Of a stretch of 20,000 nt of DNA, positions 72-17,716 are shown piece after piece. A program made the translations under genes and the position numbers. The notes below the pieces were generated by a model that ran no database searches, had not been told where the DNA came from, and saw nothing but the letters and a program-made list of their open reading frames with translations. The stretch comes from an uncultured virus (IMG/VR IMGVR_UViG_3300000553_000028) (Duplodnaviria > Heunggongvirae > Uroviricota > Caudoviricetes), in the IMG/VR virus record IMGVR_UViG_3300000553_000028, one strand, 5' to 3'. Position 1 is the first letter of the stretch; each line of letters starts with the position of its first letter.

Positions 72-441
72 AGAATTTGAGTATTTAGAAAAACAAAAAG
101 CAATACTCAAAGAAGAAAGAGAAAAAATAATGTTGGAAAGAAGTAAATTGTATTATCAATGGAAAGAAATACAAGAAACAGATGAATCTATTCAAAAAGA
201 CCAAGAAAGAGTTAATAAATTAAGAGGTGATTTACAATTTGAATTAAAAAAAGTAAATGAAGAATATACTATTAAGATAGATGCTGAAATCGCAGAAATA
301 CGAAAAGAAAAAAACAATGAATTAGAACTAGAACTGCAACAAGATAGATTACGATTAGATAAAATTAGAAGAGATTTACATGAGTTAATTGCAATAGAAG
401 AAGCAACAGTAATAACATTTAAACAAAAAAATATAATATAA
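40..441 (+). CDS. Hypothetical coiled-coil protein (133 aa)
   Basis: E/K/L/I-rich heptad-like sequence. Its stop overlaps the next start (TAATG), consistent with translational coupling. Confidence 0.75.
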   Translation: MKVISQKELDKEFEYLEKQKAILKEEREKIMLERSKLYYQWKEIQETDESIQKDQERVNKLRGDLQFELKKVNEEYTIKIDAEIAEIRKEKNNELELELQQDRLRLDKIRRDLHELIAIEEATVITFKQKNII

Positions 442-1178
442 TGTTAGATATACAAAAAAATGAATATTCTACTGGAACAATATGGGATATGGTAGATGAA
501 ATAAATTCCGATTTTCTTAAATCTTTATACGATAGTGTTTTAGTTAAATTCAAAGATAACACAGATTGTGTAACTTATTTGTATTCATCATACAATGATC
601 ATCCAGATTATAAACAATCTGCATATTATACAAAAGATGAATTTATTAATATAAAACAATATGTAGAAGAAAAAAATGATGAAAGATATGAACCACATCA
701 GCAAAATAAAATGTGTCATACTCATTTATCTGAATTTGAAGAAAAGATTGGTTTAGATAAAAATTATTTTAACAATGTAGTATATAAAGTATTAGATGAT
801 TTAGCAGTTAAAATATTAAAAAAAGAATATAATATAGAAGTTAACACAGAAGATTTTATACATAAAGCACAATTAACTTGGTATAGTGATGGTGATTTTA
901 TTAAAATGCATGATGATGGACCGACTGATACTAGAATATGTGCTTTGTTAATTTATTTAACTCCGGAAGAATATTATAAAGCAGGTAGTGGTGGTGAATT
1001 GGTATTGAAAAATAGAAAAAATACAATTGATATAGCTTATCCAATATTAGGAAACTATGCAGTTATTGATTTTACAAGAAACTCACCGGTACATTCAGTA
1101 CATAAAGTGAGTGGAAATTTCAATAGATTTGCATATTTAAATTTTATAGAATTAAAAGATAAAAATGCAAGGCCTTAA
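441..1178 (+). CDS. 2OG-Fe(II) oxygenase, prolyl-4-hydroxylase-like
   Basis: HxD (IKMHDDG), ICALLIYL, GGELVL, distal His (HSVHKV) and the 2OG-binding Arg (NRFAY). Confidence 0.88.
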   Translation: MLDIQKNEYSTGTIWDMVDEINSDFLKSLYDSVLVKFKDNTDCVTYLYSSYNDHPDYKQSAYYTKDEFINIKQYVEEKNDERYEPHQQNKMCHTHLSEFEEKIGLDKNYFNNVVYKVLDDLAVKILKKEYNIEVNTEDFIHKAQLTWYSDGDFIKMHDDGPTDTRICALLIYLTPEEYYKAGSGGELVLKNRKNTIDIAYPILGNYAVIDFTRNSPVHSVHKVSGNFNRFAYLNFIELKDKNARP

Positions 1179-1815
1179 TAAATCATATTATTGTGGAAAT
1201 GGGAATGAATTTTTTGGAAATGAATATTCTAAAAGATTAGAAGAAGCATATAATGGAATATTAAATTATAAAGATTTTGATTATCAAATTATATATTCTT
1301 TAAATGCAGTACACAATGTAAGTATTGTACCATCAAAACCATTTAATGAACAAATTTTTTATAAAAATGAATTTATTTCAAAGAAAGAAAATTTAGCACA
1401 AGTTTGGTTTGAAAAGAATAATCTAATAACTGAATTTCATTCTATATCTGATTATTGTTATTTAAAATTATTAGAATTATATCCTGAACAAAGTAAAAGA
1501 TTTGGTGGTCCATCTTTTTCTTTAACAATATATGATAAAGGTTGTTTTATAGAAAATCATAAAGATGGTGATGATGATGATAAAAGTAGATTATGTGTAG
1601 TTTTATTGTATTTAAATAAAGATTGGAAACCGGGAATGGGTGGAGAACTAATAATTACAGATGAACATGGAAATAAATTGGAAATTACGCCAGAATTTGG
1701 TAACTTTGCAATACTAGATTTTCAAAATTATAATTTATACCATGAAGTTAAACCAATTACGGATGATAACTTTCATAGAAAAACATTAATAAGTTTTATA
1801 CATTTAGCAAAATAA
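1165..1815 (+). CDS. 2OG-Fe(II) oxygenase, prolyl-4-hydroxylase-like
   Basis: IENHKDG (HxD), LLYLNKDWKPGMGGEL, HEVKPI, RKTL. Confidence 0.9.
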   Translation: MQGLNKSYYCGNGNEFFGNEYSKRLEEAYNGILNYKDFDYQIIYSLNAVHNVSIVPSKPFNEQIFYKNEFISKKENLAQVWFEKNNLITEFHSISDYCYLKLLELYPEQSKRFGGPSFSLTIYDKGCFIENHKDGDDDDKSRLCVVLLYLNKDWKPGMGGELIITDEHGNKLEITPEFGNFAILDFQNYNLYHEVKPITDDNFHRKTLISFIHLAK

Positions 1816-1820
1816 AAAAT

Positions 1821-2798
1821 ATGATAAATAAAGATTCAAAAATCCTGATAACAGGTGGTTCTGGATTAGTCGGACAGAACTTAACAAACCGATTACACAA
1901 AGAAGGTTACACAAACATTAGAGTTAATTTACACAAAAGAGGTGTAAGAAATCCAATTGAAGGAGTGGAGTATGTTCACTTTGATTTGAAAACATACGAA
2001 GGATGTTTAGATGCAACTAAAGGAGTAGAAGTAGTTTACCATTGTGCAGCAAGTACATCAAACGCAGTAGACACAGTAGTTGACCCATTAGCACATGTTA
2101 CACCAAACGTAGCAATGAACAATTTCTTAATTGATGCCAGTTGGAGAAATAAGGTTCAACATTACATCTTCTTATCATCTAATACTGTTTATCCACCAAA
2201 AGGAGATAAGCCGGTAGTAGAGACAGATTTCCTATTTGATGAACCATATCCGGTATACTTTCCAGTAGGTTGGATGAAAAGATATGCAGAAGTTCAATGT
2301 GAATTATACGCAAAGTATTTACCAACAAAAATGAAGTGCACGGTGATTAGACCTGCAAATTTATTTGGACCACATGATAAGTACGATTTCAATAAATGTC
2401 ATGTTACTCCTGCAACAATTAGAAAAGTAGCAGACCAAATGAACCCTATTCCAGTGTGGGGTGATGGTAGTGAATTACGAGATTTATTATATATTGAAGA
2501 TTTTGTAGAAGCATTACAAATAGTAATGGAAAAAGAAAAAGAAGATTATCAAGTTTATAATATTGGTTCTAACAGAGTTTATTCAGTATTAGAAGTATTA
2601 GAAGCAATGAAAAGAATTGCAAACTATAATGCACCTACTGAATTTATTAAAGGTAAACCATCGATGATTCCAACTCGTAAAATTGATTCATTTAAAATTT
2701 ATGATAAATTAGGATGGCAAGCAACTACATCATTAGAAGATGGATTAAAAAATGCATATGAATGGTATTTAGAACATAAAGATGAATTCCAAAATTAA
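1821..2798 (+). CDS. NAD(P)-dependent nucleotide-sugar epimerase/reductase, GDP-L-fucose synthase (Fcl/WcaG)-like extended SDR
   Basis: KILITGGSGLVG Rossmann motif. RPANLFGPHDKYDFNKCHVTPATIRK and VWGDGSELRDLLYIEDF match Fcl-type motifs. The catalytic YxxxK position reads VGWMK. Confidence 0.88.
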   Translation: MINKDSKILITGGSGLVGQNLTNRLHKEGYTNIRVNLHKRGVRNPIEGVEYVHFDLKTYEGCLDATKGVEVVYHCAASTSNAVDTVVDPLAHVTPNVAMNNFLIDASWRNKVQHYIFLSSNTVYPPKGDKPVVETDFLFDEPYPVYFPVGWMKRYAEVQCELYAKYLPTKMKCTVIRPANLFGPHDKYDFNKCHVTPATIRKVADQMNPIPVWGDGSELRDLLYIEDFVEALQIVMEKEKEDYQVYNIGSNRVYSVLEVLEAMKRIANYNAPTEFIKGKPSMIPTRKIDSFKIYDKLGWQATTSLEDGLKNAYEWYLEHKDEFQN

Positions 2799-3664
2799 TG
2801 AAAGGTATTTTATTTCCAGGCGACTCATATACATGGGGTGAAGGTCTTCATTTATATTCGGAGTTACCAGATACAAAATTTGATGAAATGGCGTTTGATG
2901 GAACAAATTATACTCCTTCTCATATTAAATTTATAGAAGCAAATAGATTTGCAAGAAAAGTTGCAAATCACTTCAATACGTTTGAATTAGTTAGATTTAG
3001 TAATGGTGGTAACAATAATGATATTTTTGAATTTATTGATCAGTTACCAAAACAATATTTAAAAAACCATATGCCAGCTACTGGACGTATACAAGTTCCT
3101 AGATCGGTAGAATATAGATTAGAAGATTTTGATTATATTGTTTTACAATTAACTGATATGTTTAGAAATGAAATTAAGTTTGAATATAAAGACATTATCG
3201 GATATTGTAACATTAGGTCAGATGAAAGTATAAAAAGGTCTGGTTTTATTTTCTATTTAAAAGATAATTTTAATGGTAATATAAATTATTTCATTGAATA
3301 TTATTTAAAAACTACAATTTATAATATAATAGAAAAATTTAAATTATACGAATCAAAAGGAATTAAAAGATGTTTTATTCATACATGGCATAATGACCCA
3401 ATTCCGTTCTTTAACAATAATGAATTCTTAAAAGAAAGGTGGATTACATATGATGATGGAAATAATATATTTAATTCAATTATGGATTTACAAAGTTCAG
3501 AAAAAAGAAGGTCTGGTATGAGTATAAATGATGATTATTTTTTTATACAAAAAGGAATAATTGTTAATAATGGGCATACATCATTAGAAGCACATAATAT
3601 ACAAGCAAAAGCAATAATTAAAAAAATAGAAGAATATGAGCAGTCCACAATACACTCCGTATAA
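2798..3664 (+). CDS. SGNH/GDSL hydrolase-like protein (possible sugar O-acyl esterase/transferase)
   Basis: Block I ILFPGDSYTWG, block II-like SNGGNN, C-terminal NGHTSLEAHNIQAKAI (His of block V). Confidence 0.68.
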   Translation: MKGILFPGDSYTWGEGLHLYSELPDTKFDEMAFDGTNYTPSHIKFIEANRFARKVANHFNTFELVRFSNGGNNNDIFEFIDQLPKQYLKNHMPATGRIQVPRSVEYRLEDFDYIVLQLTDMFRNEIKFEYKDIIGYCNIRSDESIKRSGFIFYLKDNFNGNINYFIEYYLKTTIYNIIEKFKLYESKGIKRCFIHTWHNDPIPFFNNNEFLKERWITYDDGNNIFNSIMDLQSSEKRRSGMSINDDYFFIQKGIIVNNGHTSLEAHNIQAKAIIKKIEEYEQSTIHSV

Positions 3665-4181
3665 AGATGCATTAACAACGGCAATGACTAATTTAGCAGA
3701 GTTAGAAGATTCTGTTTTTATTGGACAACAAATTGTATATCAAGGAAATCCTATGAGCACAACATTGGGTGGTGTATCAAAGGATAAAATGATTGAAGTT
3801 CCTGTAATGGAAGAATCACAAATGGGAATGAGTTTAGGTATGGCAATGGCAGGTAAAAGAGTTATTACATTTTATCCAAGATGGGATTTTATTATATGTG
3901 CAACAAATCAATTAGTAAATCACGTAGATAAGATTGGATTAATGAGTGGTGGCAAATGGAAACCAAACTTAATTATCAGATTGGGTAAGGGTAGTGATAA
4001 ACCATTAGATCCAGGTCATCAACACAAAGGAAATTACTTTGATGAATTTAAAAGTATGTGTCCTAATATAGAATTTCACGATTTAAAAAGACCTGAAGAT
4101 ATTGAATTAGCTTACAAATATGTAACTAAAGAAGGTGGTATTCATATTATGGTAGAATATCCGGAGTTATATTATGTATAG
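3636..4181 (+). CDS. Transketolase / 2-oxoacid dehydrogenase E1-beta-like protein, pyrimidine-binding domain only
   Basis: SVFIGQ, MIEVPVMEESQMGMSLGMAMAG (conserved ThDP-activating Glu region), FIICATNQLVNH and PGHQH. At 181 aa it lacks the C-terminal domain. Confidence 0.85.
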   Translation: MSSPQYTPYKDALTTAMTNLAELEDSVFIGQQIVYQGNPMSTTLGGVSKDKMIEVPVMEESQMGMSLGMAMAGKRVITFYPRWDFIICATNQLVNHVDKIGLMSGGKWKPNLIIRLGKGSDKPLDPGHQHKGNYFDEFKSMCPNIEFHDLKRPEDIELAYKYVTKEGGIHIMVEYPELYYV

Positions 4182-5082
4182 TGGAAAAGGAATTATATTT
4201 GTAGGATGTTCTTTTACTTGGGGTGGTGGTTTAGAATATTACCCACCATTTAAGGATATTCCAGATCCATATGCATTTCAATATGATGAACAAAAAATTA
4301 CATTTGCAATAATGAATTTTATTAAAGCAAATAGATTTAGTAGATTGGTTGCAAACCATTTTGGAATGTGGGAAGCAAATAGATTAAATTGTGGTGGTTC
4401 TGATGATGGTTCAATTGACCAAATAAAAATGATGTTAGAATTAGGTAATCATAGTCAAAACATTTCCAAGCAATTTGAAAATATTAAAATGCAAAGATAT
4501 TCAGCAGATGAAATTGAATATGTTGTATTCCAATTAACAGATCCATTTAGAAATTATCATATTAATATAAATGGTGAAAATTTAGTAATTAATATTGCAC
4601 AAATAAGACAAAGAAATACTAATGAATTTAATAAAAATGATATTAATAAATTTAAAGATACATTAGATGATACCACATTTAATAAATTTTTTAAATTTTA
4701 TATTGATAATTTTAATAGTTGGGAAGAAATGGAAGATTATTTTATATTACAAAATTTAAAAAATGTAATTGAATTATTTAAAGAGGTAGAATCACTTGGT
4801 ATAAAATGTAAATTGTGGAGTTGGCACAATGAATACGTTCCATTTATAAAAGAAAATGAATATTTATCGAATAAATTCATTAAACTAAAATATAATGATA
4901 CTGAATTTGATTCTTTATATAATTTAATGCATACATACCCAAAATTTAAAATAAGTACATCTGATTTTCGTTTAAACGGAAAAAAAGTTCCAGATGATCA
5001 TCAAACACCTGAGTGTCACAAAGTAATAGCAGATAGTATAATTAATTCAATAGAAAATGATGCAATTAAATCTACTTTATAA
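4174..5082 (+). CDS. SGNH/GDSL hydrolase-like protein, paralog of 2798..3664
   Basis: IIFVGCSFTWG, GGSDD and DDHQTPECHKVIADSI. Shares ANRFxRxVANHF, QLTDxFRN and WHN with 2798..3664. Confidence 0.68.
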   Translation: MYSGKGIIFVGCSFTWGGGLEYYPPFKDIPDPYAFQYDEQKITFAIMNFIKANRFSRLVANHFGMWEANRLNCGGSDDGSIDQIKMMLELGNHSQNISKQFENIKMQRYSADEIEYVVFQLTDPFRNYHININGENLVINIAQIRQRNTNEFNKNDINKFKDTLDDTTFNKFFKFYIDNFNSWEEMEDYFILQNLKNVIELFKEVESLGIKCKLWSWHNEYVPFIKENEYLSNKFIKLKYNDTEFDSLYNLMHTYPKFKISTSDFRLNGKKVPDDHQTPECHKVIADSIINSIENDAIKSTL

Positions 5083-6304
5083 TAATTGGGTAAATAATAC
5101 ACCGGTTCCTAATTGTAATTTATGGAAAACAAATGCTGGTATTAAAAGCTTTACTTTACCAACTATTTCAGATGTAAGTTCAAATGACTGGGTATATCCA
5201 ATTGAACCATGGGGACATTTAATGTATTCATTAAATATTGAAGCAATCGATGATTATGCAAATTTCTTTGAAAGTATACCAGTTGATGTAATACAACAAA
5301 TAAATAATGATAATGGTAAATTATTGATAAATTATTCACATGAAGGTTGGGTAAGTGATTGGTCATTAAAAGGATTTTATTTAGGTGCAAAAAACGCAGG
5401 AATAAAATTTAAAAATGTTATATTAGTTTTGAACGATTATAATTTAGAACAAAAATTAATTAAATTTAAAGAAAAATATAATATTGAAGAATATCCTAAA
5501 GTTATAAATTATTCATTTTATCTAACAGCATCTTCAAATAATTTTTATCAAACATATCGTAATTATGATTTATATACGAAACATGTAAATTTAAGTAAAC
5601 CTTACAAATTTGTATGTTTAAATAGAAGATTAGATTTACATAGAGTAATATTGTTAAGTGAAATATTTGATGACATAAAAACTGAATCATTAATATCTTT
5701 TGATAAATCTTTAATTACAAATGAAGTTGAAAAATTATTTGAAATTAGACCAGATATAAAAACTAAATTTGAAAATCTTCCTGATAAAGTAATAGCAGAT
5801 ATAGTTGATATCGAAAATGTAAATGGATATAAACATGATAATGAAAAATTATTTTTAGATTCATATATCAGTATAGTTACAGAAACATCATTTTATATTG
5901 ATAATGACTTTATTAGTGAAAAAATATGGAAACCATTATATAAATTTCATCCATTTATTGTAGTTGGTAGACCACATTTACTAAAATACTTAAAAGATAT
6001 TGGATTTAAAACATTTGATTTTTTAATAGATGAAACGTATGATACGATTGAAGATAATGATTTAAGAATGGAAGCTATTATAAAGGAAATTAAAAAAATA
6101 AATGAAATTTCTATATATGAATTAGAAACTATTATTAAACAAAATTATAATATACTAAAACATAATCATGATTTATTAAATGAATTTGGCAAACAAACAA
6201 CCGCTACTGAAGAATATTTTATTAAAAATATAAAAAACGATAATTATAGTTATACTGATATATACAAAGAATTAAAGTTACAAATTCCAAACAAAATAAT
6301 TTAA
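5057..6304 (+). CDS. Putative glycosyltransferase with a GT10 (alpha-1,3-fucosyltransferase)-like C-terminal motif
   Basis: KFVCLNRR..HR and SYISIVTETS...DFISEKIWKPL...HPFIVVG resemble the GT10 FENS..DYITEK..P.V.G donor-binding motif. The gene lies in a nucleotide-sugar cluster. Confidence 0.5.
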   Translation: MMQLNLLYNNWVNNTPVPNCNLWKTNAGIKSFTLPTISDVSSNDWVYPIEPWGHLMYSLNIEAIDDYANFFESIPVDVIQQINNDNGKLLINYSHEGWVSDWSLKGFYLGAKNAGIKFKNVILVLNDYNLEQKLIKFKEKYNIEEYPKVINYSFYLTASSNNFYQTYRNYDLYTKHVNLSKPYKFVCLNRRLDLHRVILLSEIFDDIKTESLISFDKSLITNEVEKLFEIRPDIKTKFENLPDKVIADIVDIENVNGYKHDNEKLFLDSYISIVTETSFYIDNDFISEKIWKPLYKFHPFIVVGRPHLLKYLKDIGFKTFDFLIDETYDTIEDNDLRMEAIIKEIKKINEISIYELETIIKQNYNILKHNHDLLNEFGKQTTATEEYFIKNIKNDNYSYTDIYKELKLQIPNKII

Positions 6305-6428: not shown

Positions 6429-6437
6429 ATATTTATA
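6429..6437 (+). promoter_or_regulatory. ATATTTATA motif, putative late promoter (copy 1)
   Basis: Exact 9-mer shared by five intergenic gaps; here 3 nt before ATG 6441. Confidence 0.6.
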
Positions 6438-6440
6438 CTT

Positions 6441-9400
6441 ATGGAATTATCTAAATTTATTGTAAACGAATTACTTAACGATATCAATTTTGATGTTGTT
6501 GAACGTTTATTGTCCGAAGAAGGAATGTATGATATTGAAAATGATCAAGCAAGTAATCCTATTACAATCAAAGATATCGCAATTCATTGGATGGGTACTG
6601 GTAATACTGACTGGAGAAAAATTGCAGAAAAAGTAAAAACTCAACTTATATTAGGTATTAGAGCTGAAATGGAATATACTAATAATGTAAGATTAGCAGC
6701 CGAAATTGCTAAAAAACATTTAATGGATGATCCTTCTTATTATGATTTTTCAACTAAAGCAGATAATAGTGCAACTCAAGACCCACATCCTGAAATTCCA
6801 AATGAAAATACAATAAAAGAAGAAAATCCAAATTATGATAATGATTCGGATGATTTACATAATATTTACAATACACAAATATCAGATCCTTCAACAGGTA
6901 GAAAATTTAAGATTAAAGATGCATTGAGATTAGACCCAATGGATTTTGCACACCAAGAAGCAATGAGAATGTTAAGAGTGTTATTAGCACAAAAACACAG
7001 ACAAACTCCTGGTAATATTGGTAAAGGACAACAATCGCCTGAAACGGATAAACCTAAACAAGTTAATTTAAGTTTGTATGCAGCCGGGTATGGAGAGGGT
7101 GTAGTAAAAGAAGCAAGTTCAACGGGAAGTGGATATGATGAAAAAGTTTTAGACCAATTAGTAGATAATCCAGAGACCGGTGAAAAAGTAAAAGTTCGTT
7201 CAGCCTTAAATTACGATAGAAATCATCCGGCATATAGAGCAGCTATTGCATTAGTAAGAAAAGCAAATGCAATACAACAGGGAAAAGGTAAAGTGGATGT
7301 AGGTAATACTCCACCACAAACTCCACAAAATAATGCACCTAAACAACCATCTAAACAACAACCACCAAATGCAAGTGAACCTATTAGTGTTTCAAAAAGA
7401 TTTGGAAATGGTACACAAGATGGTTCAAATACACAAAACGGAACACATAGTACAAACAAAACACAAAAACCATTAGAAAAACCATTGAGTGCACCTAATG
7501 ATGTGGATAATCCAGTTGATAAAAAAGATATATCACATCATACTGTATTACAACCAACAAAGGGAGCAGAAAATGGAAATAAGGCAGGTGTTGGTAAAGT
7601 AGCAAGTAAAGCGGTTCAAAATCCAAAAATTATAGCAAGAGCAATACACCATAATATTAAAAAATGGAGTAGAGAAGAAAAAGAATTTTTTGTTAATGAA
7701 TTACATAAAGCAAATTCAGAAACAAGAAGAAGTATTGGACAGGCTATAAATCATAAAATTAAAGCAATTGTTCCAGCAGTTAAAAAAGAAATGTCTCATT
7801 TAGGACATGAATTTAAGCATGCCGGAGAAGGTATATCTCATTTATTTCAAGGTAAAAAATTAAGTGATAAAGAAAAACATGCATTTAAAAGTTTAGCAAA
7901 AACTGTTGCAATGAGTACAATGGGTGTTGCATTAGGCCCAGGATTAGGACATGGTGCAGCGGCTTTAGTATCTCACTTAGGAACACACTTAGCACAACAT
8001 ATGGTAGGTGAGTTAGCAGTTGGTGGTATTGGTAAAGCAGCATTATTTGCAGGATATGAACAAGAGGAAGATACTGACAAATATGTTGAATGGTTTATAT
8101 TAGCATTTGCAAAAAGAATGAAAGATGGAGAAATACCATTAGAAGTGTGGGAAAATGCAGTTCAAGATTATACCAATGATAAAGAAGATGGTAAATTTGA
8201 TAAAAAAGATGATGTTGAACCTGAAGAAACAAATGAAGAAGTTATAGCAGAAGAAAGTACAAGTGCAGATGCAATGAATGGAACAGGTGCATGGGCTGGG
8301 TTACAACCTGGAGAAACACCATGGAGTGGAGTAGGTATGGATACTGCACCAAGTAGTTTCATAGGAACACATACATTATCAGATATAAGTTCACAATCAG
8401 ATAGTGCAAACTCTACAACTGGAACAGAACATAATGCAACTTGGGATGAATACGACCATCAAGGATATTATACAGATAAATTACCAGGATGGCAAGTAAT
8501 AGGACATTTAAGTAATACACTACCAGATGAAGTAAAAAATAGAGTATTACCTATATTTAATCACGCGGGTAATGAAAACGGACCAGCGGCACACACAATA
8601 CAAAAAATAGTTGCACCCAATTTAATTAAATACGAAAGTTTTGAAAGAACCGATAAAGATTTACTTATGGAAGGTGGAGCAGCAGGACACTTGGCACATC
8701 CATTTGAAGATGAAAATTTAACTTTTTCCGATATGAAATTTATGATTGGAAAAGGATTGCTAGGTGGGTTAGATTCAGAAGGTCCTGTTAGTGAGAAATT
8801 AGATGGACAAAATATTGCATTTAGTGTAAGAGATGGTAAAGTAGTGTTTGGTAGAAATAAAGGACACGTTAAAGATAGTGGTAAGAATGCATTAGATACT
8901 AAAGGAATATACAATCAATTCAAAGGTAGAGGTGGTATTGAGAAAGCATTCGTAGGAGCATCTGAAGATTTACAATCAGCAGTTAAGAAACTTTCACCTG
9001 CACAAATTAAGAAAATGTTTGGTAATGGTTCTAAGTTTATGAGTTTAGAAATTATTTTACCAGATACTACAAATGTAATTCCATATGGTAAAAGTGTGTT
9101 GGTTATGCACGGAACCATTGAATATAATAAAGATGGAGAACAAATACGTCGTTCTACTGAAGATGCTGAAACATTTGCAAAAGCAGTTCAAAAAGTTGGT
9201 GCAGATAAACAAAAAACATTCGGAATTGAAGGTCCTAGAACAATTGCATTTTCCGATGAACCAACAAAAGAATATCTAAGTAAATACAAATTATACCACA
9301 GACAATTATCTGATTTAGAAAAACAATATGGTTTAACCGATAAATCTAAATTGGAAGATTATAGAAGAAAATGGTGGTCAATTGAATTAGATAAGCAAGA

Positions 9401-10742
9401 AAAACAGTTGGGTATTAAGTTTACTCCAGAACAAAAGAAAGGATTGATTAAAAGATGGGCAGATGGTGATAAAACATTTGGTGTAAAGAATTTTGATAAA
9501 CCTAAGCAACAACAATGGTTTAGAGATTTTGATGCAAATAAATTACAAGGTGCACAAAAACAAATGATTAAGCCGGTTGAGAGTGTATTCTTAAATGCAG
9601 GAGCTCAAACATTAAAAAGAGTAACAAACTTTTTAGCATCAAACAATCCAGGTGCAGCAGATGAGTTAAGAAAAGAAACTATAAAATCTATAAAAGGTAT
9701 TAAAGATAGTAAAGATGTTGATAAGATTGCAAAATTACAAACTGAATTAGAACGATTACATAATATCGGTATGGACAATGTTGTTCCATCAGAAGGTATT
9801 GTATTTCAGTATAAAGGTAAACCATATAAATTTACAGGAGCATTTGCACCTATAAATCAAATCAATGGTTCATTTAAGTTTGATAAACCTAAGAAGGGTG
9901 ATGTTAAAAAAGATGATAGTGTTGCAGAAATACCAAAGGTTAGTAAGAAAGAAGTAGCAATATTCACTGGTAGATTCCAACCATTTCACGCCGGTCATTA
10001 TAGTATTTACAAAGCATTAGTTGATAAGTTTGGTAAAGATAATGTTTATATAGCATCATCAAACGTACAAGATCCTATTAGGTCTCCATTCCCATTCAAA
10101 GATAAAAAGCAAATAATGCATACTATGTTTGATATACCTACTAATAAAATAGTTCAGGTTAAAAATCCATATGCACCGAATGAAATATTAGATAAATTAC
10201 CAAAAGATACTCCATATGTAACTGCTGTTTCTCAAAAAGATGCAGAAAGATTAGAGCAAGGGGGTAAATATTTTAAGAATTATGATAAAGTTGCAGCAGA
10301 TAAAAGAAAAGGATATGAGGACGAGGGGTATTATATAGTAGCTCCTGAAATGCAATTGAAAGTAAATGGTAAAAATATAAGTGGAACTCAGTTAAGAGCA
10401 ACATTTGGTGATCCTAAAATGAGTTTAGCAGATAAGAAAAAAATATTTACACAAGTTTATCCTAAATTTGATAAGGATATATTTGCTAGAATTGTAGTAA
10501 CAACTAAAAATGCAGAGAAAGCTAAAGGTGGAGAATCAAAACCAAAACCAACGGAACCACAAAAATCCAAAGTAAATACGGATATTAAGAACAATAAAAA
10601 GGTTGAAAAGGTATTACAACAAAAGATTAAAAATCCAGAAACTGGTAGAATGATTTTAGTTAAAACTGCTTTGGGATATGATAAATCTGTTAAGGTTAGA
10701 AAGAATGCAATGCAATTAGTAAAAAATGCAATGAGTAAATAA
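6441..10742 (+). CDS. 1433-aa multidomain protein: DUF5661-like motif, NPxTG repeats, KxDG ligase-superfamily domain and HxGH nucleotidyltransferase
   Basis: GIRAEMEYT..LAAEIAKKHLMDDPSYY (6642-6743). EKLDGQN (8793-8813), SLEII and EGIVF..YKF (9792-9833) fit ligase motifs I, III, IV and V. GRFQPFHAGH (9969-9998) and ISGTQLR (10377-10397) fit the cytidylyltransferase-like fold. Confidence 0.85.
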   Translation: MELSKFIVNELLNDINFDVVERLLSEEGMYDIENDQASNPITIKDIAIHWMGTGNTDWRKIAEKVKTQLILGIRAEMEYTNNVRLAAEIAKKHLMDDPSYYDFSTKADNSATQDPHPEIPNENTIKEENPNYDNDSDDLHNIYNTQISDPSTGRKFKIKDALRLDPMDFAHQEAMRMLRVLLAQKHRQTPGNIGKGQQSPETDKPKQVNLSLYAAGYGEGVVKEASSTGSGYDEKVLDQLVDNPETGEKVKVRSALNYDRNHPAYRAAIALVRKANAIQQGKGKVDVGNTPPQTPQNNAPKQPSKQQPPNASEPISVSKRFGNGTQDGSNTQNGTHSTNKTQKPLEKPLSAPNDVDNPVDKKDISHHTVLQPTKGAENGNKAGVGKVASKAVQNPKIIARAIHHNIKKWSREEKEFFVNELHKANSETRRSIGQAINHKIKAIVPAVKKEMSHLGHEFKHAGEGISHLFQGKKLSDKEKHAFKSLAKTVAMSTMGVALGPGLGHGAAALVSHLGTHLAQHMVGELAVGGIGKAALFAGYEQEEDTDKYVEWFILAFAKRMKDGEIPLEVWENAVQDYTNDKEDGKFDKKDDVEPEETNEEVIAEESTSADAMNGTGAWAGLQPGETPWSGVGMDTAPSSFIGTHTLSDISSQSDSANSTTGTEHNATWDEYDHQGYYTDKLPGWQVIGHLSNTLPDEVKNRVLPIFNHAGNENGPAAHTIQKIVAPNLIKYESFERTDKDLLMEGGAAGHLAHPFEDENLTFSDMKFMIGKGLLGGLDSEGPVSEKLDGQNIAFSVRDGKVVFGRNKGHVKDSGKNALDTKGIYNQFKGRGGIEKAFVGASEDLQSAVKKLSPAQIKKMFGNGSKFMSLEIILPDTTNVIPYGKSVLVMHGTIEYNKDGEQIRRSTEDAETFAKAVQKVGADKQKTFGIEGPRTIAFSDEPTKEYLSKYKLYHRQLSDLEKQYGLTDKSKLEDYRRKWWSIELDKQEKQLGIKFTPEQKKGLIKRWADGDKTFGVKNFDKPKQQQWFRDFDANKLQGAQKQMIKPVESVFLNAGAQTLKRVTNFLASNNPGAADELRKETIKSIKGIKDSKDVDKIAKLQTELERLHNIGMDNVVPSEGIVFQYKGKPYKFTGAFAPINQINGSFKFDKPKKGDVKKDDSVAEIPKVSKKEVAIFTGRFQPFHAGHYSIYKALVDKFGKDNVYIASSNVQDPIRSPFPFKDKKQIMHTMFDIPTNKIVQVKNPYAPNEILDKLPKDTPYVTAVSQKDAERLEQGGKYFKNYDKVAADKRKGYEDEGYYIVAPEMQLKVNGKNISGTQLRATFGDPKMSLADKKKIFTQVYPKFDKDIFARIVVTTKNAEKAKGGESKPKPTEPQKSKVNTDIKNNKKVEKVLQQKIKNPETGRMILVKTALGYDKSVKVRKNAMQLVKNAMSK
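6876..6974 (+). repeat. NPxTG protein module, copy 1
   Basis: QISDPSTGRKFKIKDALRLDPMDFAHQEAMRML. Confidence 0.65.
7155..7256 (+). repeat. NPxTG protein module, copy 2
   Basis: QLVDNPETGEKVKVRSALNYDRNHPAYRAAIALV. Confidence 0.75.
10620..10721 (+). repeat. NPxTG protein module, copy 3
   Basis: QKIKNPETGRMILVKTALGYDKSVKVRKNAMQLV. Confidence 0.75.
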
Positions 10743-10787: not shown

Positions 10788-11450
10788 ATGATTATAAAGA
10801 GTAAAGGTAATAAAGACAAGAAAACCTGGATACACCCTAGTAGAAAAAAGATATTAGATACTATGAGGGGTATTGATAGTGGAAACGCTACATTGGGGTG
10901 GGAAGCAAAAAAGGTTAAGAGAGAAGTTGGTGATAAATGGACGGATGCAGATGGTAAGGAGTGGGAACAGCATGATGGATTTGTAATGCGTGTTACTCAA
11001 TATGATGAAGCTAGAGCATATTTAGATGAACTTAACACTTGTAAATCAAAAGAGTGTAAAACATTTAAATTAACTGCAGCACATAAAAAAATAATCAAAA
11101 AGACTGGTTATTGTATAAATTGTTTAGTGGAAAGAGAAGCAAAGATGAGAGAAGCAGGTTTATATCAAAACTATGAATTTTGGAAAATAAACTCAAATAC
11201 ATTAGGACAAATACAAGATGACCTAAAAAGATTTGAACAAGCAAGAAAAGATGCAGACACAGTTCCTACTTTTGTAAATGCAGATGGTAGTATTGAAAAG
11301 TGGAGTATTGATGGTGACATTGATAAAGTGAAAGCAGATTTAGATTCAGATATAGAGGGTCTAAAAGAATTAATAATAAAATTCCAAGCCGCAGTAGATG
11401 AGGATTGGGATATAATAAAGGAGAAATACAATGAAATTTTCAACGATTAA
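10788..11450 (+). CDS. Hypothetical protein with putative Zn-binding cysteines
   Basis: KREVGDKWTDADGKEWEQ beta-rich motif, CKSKEC...GYCINC and a helical C-terminus. Overlaps the next gene. Confidence 0.8.
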   Translation: MIIKSKGNKDKKTWIHPSRKKILDTMRGIDSGNATLGWEAKKVKREVGDKWTDADGKEWEQHDGFVMRVTQYDEARAYLDELNTCKSKECKTFKLTAAHKKIIKKTGYCINCLVEREAKMREAGLYQNYEFWKINSNTLGQIQDDLKRFEQARKDADTVPTFVNADGSIEKWSIDGDIDKVKADLDSDIEGLKELIIKFQAAVDEDWDIIKEKYNEIFND

Positions 11451-12072
11451 GAACATACTTTTAGTTGCATTTATTGCATTTTTTATCTACCAATTAAAAG
11501 GTGGTAAATTAGGAATAGGTAAAACTATGGTGGTGGATGGCAAGGCATACGAAGTTATCAAAGAAATTCACGATACAACCGAAGTAGAAAAAATAAAAAC
11601 ACTTTGGAAAAAAGGTAAAGATATTGTTCACACAACTATCTTACATGATACAACAATTAAATTAGCAAATATAGATACTAATGCAATATTACATGATTAT
11701 TTTGCTAAAAACATATACAAAGATACTTTAAGATTACCTGATAGTTTAGGATTTGTAACATTAACAGATACAATATCTAAGAACGCAATTCAGGGTAGAA
11801 CATTTACTGCAAAAGTTAAACAAAGAATTATCAATAATACTACAATTGTAAAAGAATTACCTAAAACAAAAGTATTCTATGGTATTGAAGGTGGATTTAA
11901 CAAAGCAGATGTAGTATCTCATTTAGGTTTAGGTGTGTTAATTAATACAAAATCGGACAAAATATACAATTTAGGAATTGGTGTAGCTAATAGAACAACG
12001 GACGGAACAAATGGTAAATTATCAGCTTATATCAATGGTGGTGTATATTGGAAGATTAGATTAAGAAAATAA
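11431..12072 (+). CDS. Membrane-anchored protein with C-terminal amphipathic beta-strands (possible lysis/spanin-like)
   Basis: N-terminal K-rich plus hydrophobic stretch (ILLVAFIAFFIYQL), several DT-x motifs, and terminal strands ending YINGGVYWKIRLRK. AAGGAG at 11418-11423. Confidence 0.7.
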   Translation: MKFSTIKNILLVAFIAFFIYQLKGGKLGIGKTMVVDGKAYEVIKEIHDTTEVEKIKTLWKKGKDIVHTTILHDTTIKLANIDTNAILHDYFAKNIYKDTLRLPDSLGFVTLTDTISKNAIQGRTFTAKVKQRIINNTTIVKELPKTKVFYGIEGGFNKADVVSHLGLGVLINTKSDKIYNLGIGVANRTTDGTNGKLSAYINGGVYWKIRLRK

Positions 12073-13667
12073 TGAGTACTCCACAAAAATCCTTAAAGGA
12101 TGTAATAAAGGAACAATATCAGAAGTGTGCATCCGATCCGGTATACTTCATGAAAAAGTATTGTAAAATCCAACATCCAATGAGAGGAAAAATTCCATTT
12201 GAATTATATCCTTTCCAAGAAGATGCGTTAACGGATTTCGCAACACATAGATACAACATTGTATTAAAATCTCGTCAGTTAGGTATCTCAACATTAGTAG
12301 CAGGTTATTCTTTATGGAAAATGATATTCCAAGAGGATTTCAACGTTCTTATTATTGCGAACAAACAAGATGTAGCAAAGAACTTAGTATTAAAAGTTAG
12401 AACGATGAATCAACTTCTACCTGTATGGTTAAGAGTTGCAGAATCGGAAGATAACAAACTTTCCCTTCGTTTAAAAAATGGTTCTCAAATCAAAGCGGTA
12501 TCTTCAAAACCTGACTCTGGTCGTTCTGAAGCCTTATCACTATTGGTATTCGATGAGGCCGCGTTCATTGATTATATTGATGAAATATGGACTGGTACTC
12601 AGTTAACACTTGCAACCGGTGGTGACTGTATTGCACTTTCTACTCCAAATGGTGTGGGTAACTGGTTTCACAGAATGTGGGTTGGTGCAGAAAATGGACA
12701 AAACCTTTTCAATCCAATCAAACTACACTGGACAGTTCACCCTGATAGAGAACAAAGTTGGAGAGATGAACAAACTAAACAATTAGGTGAAAAACAAGCA
12801 GCACAAGAGTGTGATTGTGACTTTATTAGTTCTGGTGATAATGTAATTGATGGTGAATTATTACAATGGTATACCAATAATTATGTGATTGAACCAACAT
12901 CTAAAGGTGGGTTTGATGGTAACTATTGGAAATGGAGAGAAGCAGATTATAGTAGAACATATGTAGTAACAGCTGACGTAAGTAGAGGTGATGGTGCCGA
13001 TTATAGTGCATTCCATGTTATCGATGCCGAAAGTTGTGAACAAGTTGCAGAATATAAAGGTAAGATAGAACCTACTGATTTTGGTAATTTCTTAATTTCA
13101 GTAGCAACCGAATACAATGATGCATTACTTATTGTAGATAATGCAAACATTGGTTGGGCAACTATTCAACAGATATTAGATAGAGATTATAAGAATTTAT
13201 TTTGGAGTAATAAAGATGTTCAGTATGTAGATGCTGATACACAATGGACTAACAAATGGTATAGAGAACAAAAACAAATGATACCAGGGTTTACCATTTC
13301 ATCGAAAACTCGTCCTATGATTGTTTCTAAGATAGACCAATATATGAAAGATAAATCCCTTATAATACACTCTAAGAGAACGATAGATGAGTTATTTACT
13401 TTCGTTTGGGTAAATGGTAGAGCAGAAGCAGCAAGGGGTTATAATGATGACTTAACAATGAGTATGGGTATTGGTTTATGGGTTAGAGATACTGCATTAA
13501 GATTGAGAAATGAAAGAGGCCAAATGTCTTATAGCACATTAAACGGATTTACTAGAACTGAATATGATCAGACTGGTGTTTATAGTTCTCGTGATTTCCA
13601 AGAAGATCCATATAAAATGCCACTTAACAAAGATGATTTTGAAGATTTGAGGTGGCTTATTAGATAA
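12072..13667 (+). CDS. terL: Terminase large subunit (T4 gp17-like)
   Basis: LYPFQ adenine-binding motif, Walker A region LKSRQLGIST, Walker B LLVFDEAAF, coupling motif LSTPNG, RNase H-like nuclease VVTADVSRGDGADYSAF and DDLTMS. Confidence 0.96.
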   Translation: MSTPQKSLKDVIKEQYQKCASDPVYFMKKYCKIQHPMRGKIPFELYPFQEDALTDFATHRYNIVLKSRQLGISTLVAGYSLWKMIFQEDFNVLIIANKQDVAKNLVLKVRTMNQLLPVWLRVAESEDNKLSLRLKNGSQIKAVSSKPDSGRSEALSLLVFDEAAFIDYIDEIWTGTQLTLATGGDCIALSTPNGVGNWFHRMWVGAENGQNLFNPIKLHWTVHPDREQSWRDEQTKQLGEKQAAQECDCDFISSGDNVIDGELLQWYTNNYVIEPTSKGGFDGNYWKWREADYSRTYVVTADVSRGDGADYSAFHVIDAESCEQVAEYKGKIEPTDFGNFLISVATEYNDALLIVDNANIGWATIQQILDRDYKNLFWSNKDVQYVDADTQWTNKWYREQKQMIPGFTISSKTRPMIVSKIDQYMKDKSLIIHSKRTIDELFTFVWVNGRAEAARGYNDDLTMSMGIGLWVRDTALRLRNERGQMSYSTLNGFTRTEYDQTGVYSSRDFQEDPYKMPLNKDDFEDLRWLIR

Positions 13668-13705: not shown

Positions 13706-14212
13706 ATGAAGAAAAGTTTTTTATATGAATTTTTTGGTTTATCTTCAACAAAGAAAACACATACATTTGAAAGTGGTGTTAAATTTGAATTGGGTAAAAT
13801 ATATTCTGACCCTTATGCAATGGCATTTGGTAAAATAAAAGAAGAAGTTGAGGATGATGATATTGATGAGTATGATGTGGATAGTGAATATCAGGATGAA
13901 TTAGAAGATTTCTTATCTTTCTTAAAAACAAAAATGAAAGAAAAAGAAGCGTATAATGAATCTTTAAACGAAGCAGAATATCAAGGTAAATCTGTAACTC
14001 TTAACAAACCAATGCAAGGTGATGTTAAAAAGTTTAAAGTTTATGTAAAGAATCCAGCAGGTAGAGTTGTTAAAGTAAACTTTGGCCAAAAAGGAATGGT
14101 GATTAAGAAAAATAATCCAGAGAGAAGAAAATCATTTAGAGCAAGAATGCATTGTGATACTAATCCTGGTCCAAGAACCAAAGCAAACTATTGGTCTTGT
14201 AAAAAATGGTAA
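13706..14212 (+). CDS. Hypothetical phage protein: acidic N-terminal half and basic Cys/His C-terminal domain (DUF6321-like, from memory)
   Basis: LNE|AEYQG followed by KKFKVYVKNP..VKVNFG..NPERRKSFRARMHC..KANYWSCKKW, a domain I recall from T4-like aquatic phages. Confidence 0.75.
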   Translation: MKKSFLYEFFGLSSTKKTHTFESGVKFELGKIYSDPYAMAFGKIKEEVEDDDIDEYDVDSEYQDELEDFLSFLKTKMKEKEAYNESLNEAEYQGKSVTLNKPMQGDVKKFKVYVKNPAGRVVKVNFGQKGMVIKKNNPERRKSFRARMHCDTNPGPRTKANYWSCKKW

Positions 14213-14221
14213 TAAAAAAAT

Positions 14222-16150
14222 ATGGCAGATAATTCATTTTACGGCAGGTTAAAGAAGCTCTTTTCTACTTCGGTAATCGTAAGAAACCAAGGTGGTAGAT
14301 TAAAAGTAATTGACTTTGATGAAACACAAGCAATTGCAACAAATCTAAGAGATAGATATATGAGATTACACTCATCGGCTATGAACAATACCTTTGAGAA
14401 CTATTTAGCATATCAACAAATTAGACAAGAGTTATTTAGAGATTATGATGCAATGGATCAAGATCCAATTATATCAGCGGCTTTAGATATATTTGCAGAT
14501 GAATCAACTTCTAAAAATGAGTATGGTAGAGTTATTGAAATAAAAACGAATAACGATCATATTAAAGATATTTTAACCAATTTGTTCTACGATATTGTAA
14601 ATGTAGAATTTAATATGTGGCCTTGGGTTAGAAGTTTAGTTAAATATGGAGATTTCTTTTTACACTTAGAAATTGCAGAAAACTTAGGAGTAGTGGGTGT
14701 ACAACCTCTTTCAGTATATGAAATTACAAGAGTAGAAGGATACGATCCAAATAACTGGCAGGCTGTTAAATTTGTTCATACTCCGTTAGCAACTAAATCA
14801 TTATTCATAGCAGGTCAAAAAACCGAATATGAAAACTATGAGATTGCTCACTTCCGTTTATTATCTGATACAAACTTCCTACCTTATGGTAAATCGCTTT
14901 TAGAGGGAGCAAGAAGATTGTGGAAACAAATTCAATTAATGGAAGATGCAATGATTATCCATAGAATTGTAAGAGCTCCACAAAAAAGAATATTTAAAAT
15001 TGATGTGGGTGGTATTAACCCAAATGAAGTTGATAACTATATGCAAAAAATTATCAACAAATCTAAGAAAACTCCATACATAGACCAACAAAGTGGTGAA
15101 TATAATCAAAAATATAATATTCAAAACCTAATGGAAGATTTCTATTTACCAGTTAGAGGTAATGATAGTGGAACTGAAATTACAAACTTAGATGGTTTGG
15201 AATACGCTCCAATGGAAGATATTGATTATTTAAAAAATAAAATGTTTGCAGCATTAAAGATACCTAAACAACATTTAGGTTATTTAGAAGATGGTAATTC
15301 AAAAGCTACTTTAGCTGCAATGGATATGAGATTTGCAAAAACTATTGAAAGATTCCAAAGAATAATTGTAGATGGTTTAGAAAAAATTGCAATCGCACAT
15401 TTATATGCACAAGGAGTTGATGATAGTGAATTAACAAACTTTGAATTACAATTAACCCTACCATCTTTAATTTACGAACAAGAAAAAATTAATCTTTGGA
15501 CAATGAAAATGGAATTGGTACAAAAGATGGACCAATTAAAAGTAATTTCTAAAGAATGGATATACAAAAATATACTTAATTTCAGTTACGAAGAAGCCGA
15601 ATTACAAATCGAAGGATTGAAAAAAGATGCAATGCTTACTTTCAAACTTAATAATTTAGAACAAACTGGAACCGAAAAACCACAAGACCAACAAGGAATG
15701 TTAGGACAACAACCTGCATTGGGTAGTGATGAAAATGGACAACCAATGGCAACTGATGGTGAAGAACAACCACAAATGGGAGGTGAAGAACAACCAGAAC
15801 AAGGTGGAGAGGAAGCACCTGAAGAACAAGAACCAACACCAAACGGACAACCATTAAATGTTGAAGACCAAATTGCAAAGTTAAAAGCACAATTGGGTGG
15901 TGAAGATGAAGAAAGTGATGATGAAGAACAAAACGAAGCTAAATTAGTAGGCAGACCTAAAGAATATTCAACTAGAGGTAAAGATAAATCTCCATTTGGT
16001 AGAGATGTAACCGGTAGTAAAGACTTAAAGAATCAATATAAAAACGAAAGTTTTATAGATATGTTAAAGAAAAACTTATCTAGAGGTGGTAAAAAGGTAA
16101 TAAGTGAAGGAAAATCTATGTTAGATGAACAAAATATCATAGAAAATTAA
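14222..16150 (+). CDS. Portal protein (T4 gp20-like) with an acidic low-complexity C-terminal extension
   Basis: DPIISAALDIFADE, PYGKSLLEGARRLWKQIQLMEDAMIIHRIVRAPQKRIFKIDVG, EDFYLPVRG..GTEITNL and DIDYLKNKMFAALKIP are gp20-family motifs. Lies downstream of terL. Confidence 0.94.
   Translation: MADNSFYGRLKKLFSTSVIVRNQGGRLKVIDFDETQAIATNLRDRYMRLHSSAMNNTFENYLAYQQIRQELFRDYDAMDQDPIISAALDIFADESTSKNEYGRVIEIKTNNDHIKDILTNLFYDIVNVEFNMWPWVRSLVKYGDFFLHLEIAENLGVVGVQPLSVYEITRVEGYDPNNWQAVKFVHTPLATKSLFIAGQKTEYENYEIAHFRLLSDTNFLPYGKSLLEGARRLWKQIQLMEDAMIIHRIVRAPQKRIFKIDVGGINPNEVDNYMQKIINKSKKTPYIDQQSGEYNQKYNIQNLMEDFYLPVRGNDSGTEITNLDGLEYAPMEDIDYLKNKMFAALKIPKQHLGYLEDGNSKATLAAMDMRFAKTIERFQRIIVDGLEKIAIAHLYAQGVDDSELTNFELQLTLPSLIYEQEKINLWTMKMELVQKMDQLKVISKEWIYKNILNFSYEEAELQIEGLKKDAMLTFKLNNLEQTGTEKPQDQQGMLGQQPALGSDENGQPMATDGEEQPQMGGEEQPEQGGEEAPEEQEPTPNGQPLNVEDQIAKLKAQLGGEDEESDDEEQNEAKLVGRPKEYSTRGKDKSPFGRDVTGSKDLKNQYKNESFIDMLKKNLSRGGKKVISEGKSMLDEQNIIEN
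15758..15796 (+). repeat. Direct repeat GGTGAAGAACAACCA x2 (GEEQP) in the portal tail
   Basis: Copies at 15758-15772 and 15782-15796 (24-nt period), followed by a degenerate GEEAP. Confidence 0.7.
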
Positions 16151-16196: not shown

Positions 16197-17072
16197 ATGA
16201 AACAAATTAAACATTCAAAATTTAGAAACACAGGCTTTTTGTTTGAATTGCTAGTGAGACAAGTAACCTCTGATATCCTTAATAATAGAAAGGGTATAGC
16301 AGAAGGATTATTAAAGAAATATTTTAATTCAAAGACTGAGTTGTCTAACGAATTAAAACTTTATCAATTTATTGTTTCAGAAAGATACAATAGTGAAAAC
16401 AGAGCAGAGCGTTTTGTAGATGCAGTAGTAGAAAGTAGAGCTAAATTAGATGAAAAGAAAATCTTAAAAGAGAAGTATAATCTAATTAAAGAAATCAAAG
16501 ATAACTATTCTATCGATGAGTTTCTACGTTCTCAAATACCTAACTATAAAGTATTAGCATCAGTTTATAAGATATTTGAATATAAAACAAATAACGAACA
16601 AAACTACGACCCTAAAGATTATGTGGCTACTAAATTTACATTAGTAGAACATTTAGTAGGTAAAACACAAGTAAAAACAATTACGGAATCTACAATTGCA
16701 ACAGAATTAAAGAAAGAAGATAAAGAAATTCAATTACTTTCTTATAAAATGTTGGTAGATAGCTTTAATAAAAAATATAATAATCTTAACGATAAACAAA
16801 AGGGTTTATTAAAAGAATATATAAATTCATTTACAAATTCAGATAATTTAAAAAATCATGTAATTACCGAAGTTAAATCTTTAACAAAAGAATTTAAAGG
16901 AATTTCTTCTAAAATTAATGATAAAGTTACAAAAATTAAATTAGCAGAAACAATCAACCAATTATCTAAAATTGGTAATTCACAAAAAATAAAAGACAAT
17001 CATATCACATCTTTAATTATGTGTTATGAATTGGAAAAGGAATTAAAAGATGTTCAAAAAGGAATTATCTAA
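16197..17072 (+). CDS. Hypothetical helical protein of the head module (291 aa)
   Basis: Long ORF directly after the portal, starting KHSKFRNTGFLFELLVRQ. Function inferred from position only. Confidence 0.8.
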   Translation: MKQIKHSKFRNTGFLFELLVRQVTSDILNNRKGIAEGLLKKYFNSKTELSNELKLYQFIVSERYNSENRAERFVDAVVESRAKLDEKKILKEKYNLIKEIKDNYSIDEFLRSQIPNYKVLASVYKIFEYKTNNEQNYDPKDYVATKFTLVEHLVGKTQVKTITESTIATELKKEDKEIQLLSYKMLVDSFNKKYNNLNDKQKGLLKEYINSFTNSDNLKNHVITEVKSLTKEFKGISSKINDKVTKIKLAETINQLSKIGNSQKIKDNHITSLIMCYELEKELKDVQKGII

Positions 17073-17715: not shown

Positions 17716-17716
17716 T

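Follow-up and report, generated by a model that had tools for sequence, protein, structure and literature searches.

A candidate RNA ligase joined to an HxGH adenylyltransferase-type domain in a predicted head protein of T4-like aquatic phages

The stretch analyzed here, 20,000 nucleotides (nt) of the uncultured-virus record IMGVR_UViG_3300000553_000028 of IMG/VR and called the window in the following, contains a large open reading frame (ORF) for a modular protein of 1433 amino acids (aa), in which an RNA-ligase-fold domain is followed by a nucleotidyltransferase domain of the HxGH type. The ORF is located 1.3 kb upstream of terL, the gene for the terminase large subunit, and a T4-like portal gene comes next. 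The carrier is probably a large T4-like aquatic phage and the ORF product a late head protein. The central features are:

6441..10742, + strand: whole ORF, encoding the 1433-aa modular, probable head protein (ORF list, motif positions)
8673..9887, + strand: covalent nucleotidyltransferase domain of RNA-ligase fold, aa 745-1149 (fold model, conserved residues, structure searches)
9936..10505, + strand: HxGH (HIGH-superfamily) nucleotidyltransferase domain, adenylyltransferase (NMNAT/PPAT) branch by its model, aa 1166-1355 (Pfam, PHROGs, fold model)
8664..8672, + strand: LME, aa 742-744, predicted prohead-protease site and final L/I-x-E of the protein (motif scan; T4 gp21 motif, PMC9026906)
6441..6518, + strand: predicted N-terminal propeptide or head-targeting leader ending at LSE, aa 24-26 (L/I-x-E scan)

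An initial annotation, made from the sequence alone, had proposed that two unrelated nucleotidyltransferase folds are joined in this chain. Both were recovered, one RNA-ligase-like (Z up to 8.8) and the other NadM-like (Z 12.0), and the motifs lie where they had been placed: LLME/GGAAGHLAHPF at aa 741-755, EKLDGQN at 785-791 (K786, nt 8796), SLEII at 868-872, EGIVF at 1118-1122, YKF at 1129-1131, GRFQPFHAGH at 1177-1186, and ISGTQLR at 1313-1319.

The region aa 741-1149 was matched by 1774 clusters at 50% identity (E <= 0.001), the best 150 of which were aligned together with the query (151 rows). The residues of the ligase motifs, numbered via their order and the secondary structure and not via residue-level superposition, are K786 (I), R805 (Ia), E870 (III), H890 (IIIa), E1118 (IV), and K1130 (V). 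K786, D788, G789, R805, E870, and H890 are each conserved in 148 of the 151 rows, E1118 and K1130 in 150, and G1119 in all 151. Because the catalytic residues are near-invariant, the motifs are not a product of chance. In the AlphaFold2 model (pLDDT, the predicted local distance difference test, 94.5; 79 sequences) K786, E870, the E1118 region, and K1130 are on or beside strands. The 332 aa between K786 and E1118, from which a large insertion between motifs I and IV had been deduced, indeed harbor a helical insertion in the model (approximately aa 942-1109).

The alignment with VIA-align against 48,161 chains returned RNA ligases in the first eight rows (Z 8.8-7.6), including NgrRnl (5cot; Z 8.8, root mean square deviation 4.1, 186 residues aligned), Trl1 (8.6 and 8.2), Rnl2 (7.9), and Rnl1 (7.9); a Z of 8.8 is modest, and VIA-align cautions that values below 8 may reflect a common arrangement. 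A DNA ligase was ninth (Z 7.4; DNA ligases 7.4-5.2), and capping enzymes reached 5.3 and 5.1. Foldseek against the PDB gave no match at E <= 0.001, and its top nine rows were all RNA ligases (E 0.016-0.058). Modeling and a Foldseek search had been suggested as a check on this region, and they yielded a nucleotidyltransferase fold with RNA ligases as the closest structures. The ordered conserved motifs I (KxDG), III, IIIa, IV, and V together with the fold place the domain in the covalent nucleotidyltransferase superfamily.

At the sequence level, 25 of 45 family members gave weak matches to Pfam RNA_ligase (PF09414; best E 0.0029), the window protein had no match to the Rnl1/Rnl2/Rnl5 profiles (PF09414 and kin) at the curated cut-off, and PDB sequence searches with the domain retrieved no ligase. 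The fold is shared with NgrRnl (5cot), Trl1 (9r3w, 6n0t), Rnl2 (1s68), Rnl1 (9do4), and REL1 (1xdn) at Z 7.7-8.8 over 181-201 aligned residues. However, the identity to known ATP-dependent RNA ligases is 11-14%, and the window domain differs from them in the helical insertion of about 170 aa before motif IV, a His at IIIa, a single motif V lysine, an N-terminal GGAxGHxxHP, its fusion to an HxGH domain, and its predicted role as head cargo. A viral C12orf29 RNA ligase has been described with the residues K73/R89/E174/H195/K253 (bioRxiv 2024.04.24.590974), and the K/R/E/H/K set of the window protein has like residue types in like order, a comparison of order and not of superposed residues. Judged by its model, the domain is a candidate for a new RNA ligase family outside of Rnl1 and Rnl2, and RNA seems the somewhat favored substrate.

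The second domain matches Pfam CTP_transf_like (PF01467) over aa 1174-1320 (E 5.9e-7, 30.2 bits versus a cut-off of 21) and phrog_395, "cytidyltransferase" (E 3.7e-16); Pfam and PHROGs name this half alone and give no ligase label. The HxGH and SxTxxR motifs, a Rossmann-like fold, and the Pfam score above the cut-off identify a HIGH-superfamily nucleotidyltransferase. Of 115 rows, 113 retain H1186 and 111 retain R1319. The structure matches of the model (pLDDT 89.4) are led by NadM (Z 12.0), the NMNAT MJ0541 (11.2), and PPAT (10.7), followed by NadD proteins; cytidylyltransferases score 8.4 or less, and a function as cytidylyltransferase was rejected, the adenylyltransferase branch scoring higher (12.0-10.7). 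According to the model the domain thus belongs to the adenylyltransferase branch (NMNAT/PPAT), within which NMNAT and PPAT are not separable because their fold scores are close (12.0 versus 10.7); nicotinamide mononucleotide (NMN) is a tentative choice of acceptor. The domain shares the HxGH fold, GRFQPxHxGH, and SGTxxR with NadM and the archaeal NMNAT (2qjt, 1f9a), but the window family has NPY and G/SxKDxxRL motifs of its own, and compared to NadM/NadV-NadM salvage the window protein lacks a Nudix domain and the fused carriers lack NadV. A complex prediction for the ligase and HxGH domains scored 0.00 and weighs neither way.

A subgroup of the HxGH domains has Gly in place of the first His (H1183; 24 of 115 rows) and a His two positions on (25 of 115), as in phage Mel-JY01; this subgroup (L001:11243-13162 and relatives) may differ in specificity. 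Four relatives (P0013, P0019, P0027, P0047) contain two HxGH domains per chain.

Both domains are present in 111 of the 150 representatives, 94 with HxGH first, 16 with the ligase first, and one with both; the remaining 39 have no visible HxGH domain, many of them being fragments. A FastTree tree requires at least three changes of domain order among 110 labelled rows. Among the 93 IMG/VR loci examined, the ligase ORF is complete at its 5' end in 52, of which 51 are fused (seven of the 51 are near-duplicates). In agreement with the proximity to terL stated in the initial annotation, the ORF lies in a head module, and terL is found downstream in 70 of the 73 loci with at least 4 kb of flank. Three GenBank phage records contain the ligase domain. 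The cultured phage Mel-JY01 has a fused protein of 639 aa (WWT39297), encoded upstream of terL and labelled "cytidylyltransferase like"; LR756508 also has a fusion; and in LR756500 the ligase stands alone, with the HxGH gene next to it.

In this last record (LR756500.1, L003:9959-14389) the standalone ligase has a short F-x-x-E leader and is followed by a 653-aa gene with ENLDG and a C-terminal HxGH, in which Asn occupies the place of the Lys of the ligase; small genes with like leaders come after it. The N-terminal part of the 653-aa protein gave no alignment with the family profile (probability 0.4), and an inactive-ligase partner ("pseudo-ligase") is possible. The ligase domain of P0122 carries an intein close to its start, and five relatives (P0122, P0051, P0079, P0080, and P0112 are listed) have a ROS/MUCR-like domain.

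A pairing of the same two folds exists in cyanophages. The ligase model matched a 591-aa S-PM2 protein in BFVD (Foldseek, E 4.5e-5, TM score 0.36), which is taken to be gp138 because organism and length agree: gp138, too, is 591 aa long, and DUF6267 spans its residues 5-398 and CTP_transf_like 414-554. DUF6267 (PF19782; T4-GC71) and T4-GC190 are thus fused in gp138, and DUF6267 has the HxxH..KxDG start of the window ligase; in S-SZBM1 and P-SSM4 they are abutting genes, and in S-CREM2 and S-CAM7 they are 65-100 kb apart. DUF6267 relatives were found in 464 phage records. The cyanophage genes are mostly near mazG/helicase, in contrast to the location of the window family near terL. The window ligase has no match to DUF6267 (PF19782, 27 bits) at E <= 0.1, none of five carrier records was above the cut-off, and BLAST of the window ligase against DUF6267 found no match; hhalign gave a probability of 15.5 over the HxxH..KxDG start, and ESM features gave 0.96-0.98 with a low recognition score. 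Since this link is remote but the HxGH halves of both families are clearly homologous, the window ligase is probably a sister of DUF6267 and, at the level of sequence, not a member. A weak DUF6267 match in LR756508 is a tape-measure-like protein and was dismissed as chance.

To the authors of the initial annotation no characterized protein of this architecture was known. That it is uncharacterized still stands, but it is not rare, given the 1774 clusters that match the ligase domain and the occurrence in cultured phages under the label "cytidylyltransferase". Both folds and the delivery route are of known kinds, and the family and the pairing are without a published description in the literature searched, supplements lying outside of its scope and an RNA-repair survey possibly listing the family. 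The accessible passages of PMC12619734 contain nothing on the ligase-HxGH pair, and the searched literature held no paper for DUF6267 and none for Mel-JY01.

The T4 protease gp21 cleaves after L/I-X-E (PMC9026906). This motif directly precedes GGAxGH in 112 of 142 relatives (eight of the 150 lack anchor or prefix and were left out), compared to a per-position rate of 0.4% inside the ligase and 1.3% upstream, and 102 of 141 relatives have it among their first 25 aa (22.8 expected). The sites of the window protein end at E26, E63, E127, E604, and E744; none occurs in aa 745-1433, and all 13 printed ligase-first linkers are free of it. Therefore, a single two-enzyme product of 689 aa (G745-K1433) is predicted. 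Homologs of a putative prohead protease of Mel-JY01 are encoded downstream in 30 of the 73 loci, not in the window or in its nearest record, G001. With L/I-X-E sites at its N-terminus and at domain borders, and a putative gp21-type protease in the head module of related loci, the window protein fits the pattern of T4-type processed head cargo. HxGH relatives have been detected in virions, namely T4-GC190 of S-SM1 (PMC3037559), ORF140 of S-SZBM1 with two peptides (PMC9146016, Table 1), ORF91 of S-SCSM1 (PMC9602691), and ORF154 of S-CREM2 with three peptides (PMC10665884, Table 3). On these grounds the packaging suggested in the initial annotation, and the cleavage, are judged likely for the window protein. 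The L/I-X-E processing logic is shared with the internal head proteins and Alt of T4 (PMC9026906), the cargo being different. Phage polyvalent proteins are likewise large multi-module late proteins near head genes, and the passages of PMC5512222 on them list no ligase-HxGH pair and describe polyvalent 2H domains as not seen with RNA ligases.

Further features of the ORF and its surroundings are:

6639..6743, + strand: DUF5661-like small module, aa 67-101 (Pfam E 0.0015, under the cut-off; recurs in many relatives)
6852..7283, + strand: two copies of an about 48-aa "NPETG" repeat, aa 138-187 and 232-281 (repeat search)
10596..10739, + strand: third "NPETG" repeat at the C-terminus, aa 1386-1433 (repeat search)
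7593..8210, + strand: shuffled module without family, aa 385-590, mildly hydrophobic in places (homologs both within other relatives and as separate ORFs)
8253..8660, + strand: shuffled module, aa 605-740, flanked by the predicted cut sites IAE604 and LME744 (homologs in relatives)
6430..6437, + strand: TATTTATA element, probable late-promoter-type motif of the phage group, 3 nt before the ATG
12072..13667, + strand: terminase large subunit, conserved downstream neighbor (Pfam, PHROGs)
14222..16150, + strand: T4-like portal protein (Portal_T4, E 2.6e-71)

The "NPETG" repeat, present three times in the window protein, has no family name and also occurs in 27 ligase-bearing and four other ORFs of related loci. 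The maximal 19-aa hydropathy of the aa 385-590 module is 1.14, and for aa 380-600 the ESM Atlas gave only leads below 0.9 and none at 0.9.

The initial annotation had seen a late-type motif in front of the gene. Its placement was corroborated, as all five copies of TATTTATA in the window are located 3-25 nt before starts on the + strand. Its orientation is not that of T4: TATTTATA on the coding strand corresponds to the T4 late box in reverse complement, and no T4-type late box was found on the coding strand. There is also no excess, with five copies versus a chance mean of 6.54. Of 43 ligase ORFs, 21 have ATATTTAT in the 60 nt before their start, compared to 114 of 859 other ORFs, only 5 of which have its reverse complement there. 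In Mel-JY01 it precedes the genes for the portal, the tail tube, and a chitinase-like lysin, none of 14 replication or metabolic genes tested, and it is missing before terL, capsid, and sheath. It is plausible from these patterns that TATTTATA/ATATTTAT represent a late element distinct from the T4 box.

Directly after the fusion gene, a 220-aa unnamed gene (window 10788-11450) is found in 50 of the 93 loci, including Mel-JY01; as a guess, it encodes the terminase small subunit. Upstream, window 441-6304 encodes two 2OG-Fe(II) oxygenases, an NDP-sugar epimerase, a transketolase-like subunit, and unnamed paralogs. Similar blocks precede the fusion gene in L006, L007, L009, L013, and L016, and G001 (a 35-kb fragment) has further genes of the sugar-modification type upstream, judged by N-terminal sequences alone. 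Between terL, portal, and lysin, unnamed proteins with acidic L/I-x-E-like leaders or segments are encoded at window 13706-14212, 17050-18235, and 19145-20000, and these may be further head cargo. An endolysin with peptidoglycan-binding and GH19 domains (window 18252-19115) lies inside the head module.

From the computed folds, conservation of catalytic residues, fusion, position, and motif enrichment we infer a ligase-adenylyltransferase that is packaged in the head, released by a protease, and used to mend RNA at an early stage of infection, and we assign this reading a probability of about 0.5. Through its N-terminal part, which is acidic and carries L/I-x-E sites, the fusion protein would become incorporated into the prohead, and a gp21-type prohead protease would cleave after E26, E63, E127, E604, and E744. 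The product G745-K1433 with both enzymes would be injected along with the DNA. The ligase would load AMP on K786, transfer it to a 5'-phosphate, and seal broken RNA, most likely tRNA cleaved by host defense nucleases, and the HxGH domain would assist the repair by using ATP to adenylylate a phosphomonoester, either NMN or a similar nucleotide-like acceptor.

Among the three functions offered initially, RNA repair is the best, in view of the RNA-ligase structural matches and the accessory domains. A Pfam scan of 79 of the 150 relatives, chosen mainly by length, found RNA-end enzymes in 13: CCA/poly(A) polymerase in five, a Zeta/AAA_33 P-loop kinase in six, HD in three, and 2H in one (below cut-off). 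The CCA and kinase domains are scattered, each requiring five changes on the tree (unscanned rows counted as absent). CCA, kinase, and phosphoesterase partners are listed for phage RNA repair (PMC7824862), and with T4 Pnk-Rnl1 and jumbo-phage RNA repair (Rnl1/Rnl2, RlaP, CCA enzyme) the 13 relatives share the combination of a ligase with such domains. In contrast to these systems, the window family is outside of Rnl1/Rnl2, its constant partner is HxGH and not Pnk or RlaP, and it is predicted to be pre-packaged.

Besides the modest structural scores, several observations weigh against this reading. The form of motif V with two lysines is not retained, the second position being Thr in 146 of 151 rows. 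The window protein and 66 of the 79 relatives have no end-healing domain, and the accessory kinases could act on other substrates. No tRNA gene is present within the window; in Mel-JY01, a second RNA ligase is encoded next to a tRNA, so that the fused enzyme is not the sole ligase there, and the 150 nt in front of the fusion gene lack the upstream motif. At the cut site, the E744 position is C or M in 25 of 143 rows. Standalone DUF6267 is absent from the virion tables of S-SZBM1 and S-CREM2 though the HxGH protein is present, which in S-SZBM1 may be because only the HxGH protein begins with an I-x-E leader. The NMNAT of S-SCSM2R is not among the non-structural virion proteins named in the accessible part of PMC12801897, and authors of cyanophage proteomes caution about co-purification. 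An NAD+-requiring KptA/Tpt1 partner was considered as well; it occurs in two of five records (one over the cut-off) and not in Mel-JY01, and gave no support.

The alternatives overlap in part. It is unlikely that the injected protein serves NAD+ support, with the HxGH domain as a genuine NMNAT that replenishes NAD+ to counter NAD-depleting defenses and the ligase as a passenger or NAD+-using enzyme, although NadM and archaeal NMNAT are the top structural and sequence matches and cyanophage relatives were proposed as virion NMNATs (PMC9602691). The Z of PPAT (10.7) is just 1.3 below that of the top match, sequence similarity to NMNAT is mainly confined to the first approximately 65 aa and the SGT motif, and the 79 scanned relatives contain no Nudix, NAPRTase, or NadR-type kinase fusion. 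According to passages of PMC9503650 every NadM phage carries NadV, whereas, among relatives, NAPRTase is found in one of five genomes and in neither complete fused carrier. Standard NAD salvage is therefore weakened, and restoration of NAD+, one of the initial proposals, is not supported as far as the NadV/NadM route is concerned.

Equally unlikely are two unrelated enzymes that just share one head-targeting leader. The remainder of the protein is mosaic, assembled from shuffled modules, sister genes are sometimes far apart, and the representatives without HxGH would fit, many of these being fragments. However, the pair is kept in the intact ORFs with a single exception while other modules vary, and it recurs, adjacent or fused, in the distant DUF6267 family.

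Still less probable is a relay in which the HxGH domain makes App-X and the ligase adds pX to an RNA 3'-OH or another acceptor, as refill, block, or tag. It would account for folds that are kept together in either order and uncut when the ligase comes first, and T4 Rnl1 accepts App-X donors in vitro. But K786 and motif I are fully conserved, so that the ligase should activate its own donor, the commoner HxGH-first order has a predicted cut site between domains 13-743 aa apart, and the distant sister genes of S-CREM2 and S-CAM7 do not fit. We thus consider the relay per se very doubtful. A wider version is rather improbable, namely an injected relay, released by the protease, in which App-X serves as ligase donor or AMP source and RNA ends cut by the host are refilled, tagged, or sealed within minutes of the onset of infection; such a head-borne system would be conserved in large T4-like aquatic phages and, via DUF6267/T4-GC190, in most marine cyanomyoviruses. 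A packaged DNA-end enzyme that seals nicks in, circularizes, or protects the injected genome, which the neighborhood of terL and portal, the DNA ligases at Z 7.4-5.2, and the fact that a head-packaged enzyme meets DNA first would suggest, is very doubtful as well, given that the top eight structural rows are RNA ligases, that 146 of 151 rows have N or A at position +5 of motif I and not the Arg of ATP-dependent DNA ligases, that the model has no OB-fold after motif V, and that the accessory domains are RNA-end enzymes.

The cyanophage "cytidylyltransferase" T4-GC190 is a core, virion-detected protein that has been without a function since 2010 (PMC3037559). The present analysis indicates that the constant partner of this type of enzyme has a ligase fold, that the two are fused in either order, and that a head-protease motif precedes the ligase. 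Cultured carriers exist, Mel-JY01 with WWT39297 and S-PM2 with gp138 of the sister DUF6267 fusion, which makes the readings testable. If this holds, abundant aquatic phages would bring a ready-made enzyme pair for RNA mending or nucleotide transfer into the cell before any gene is expressed.

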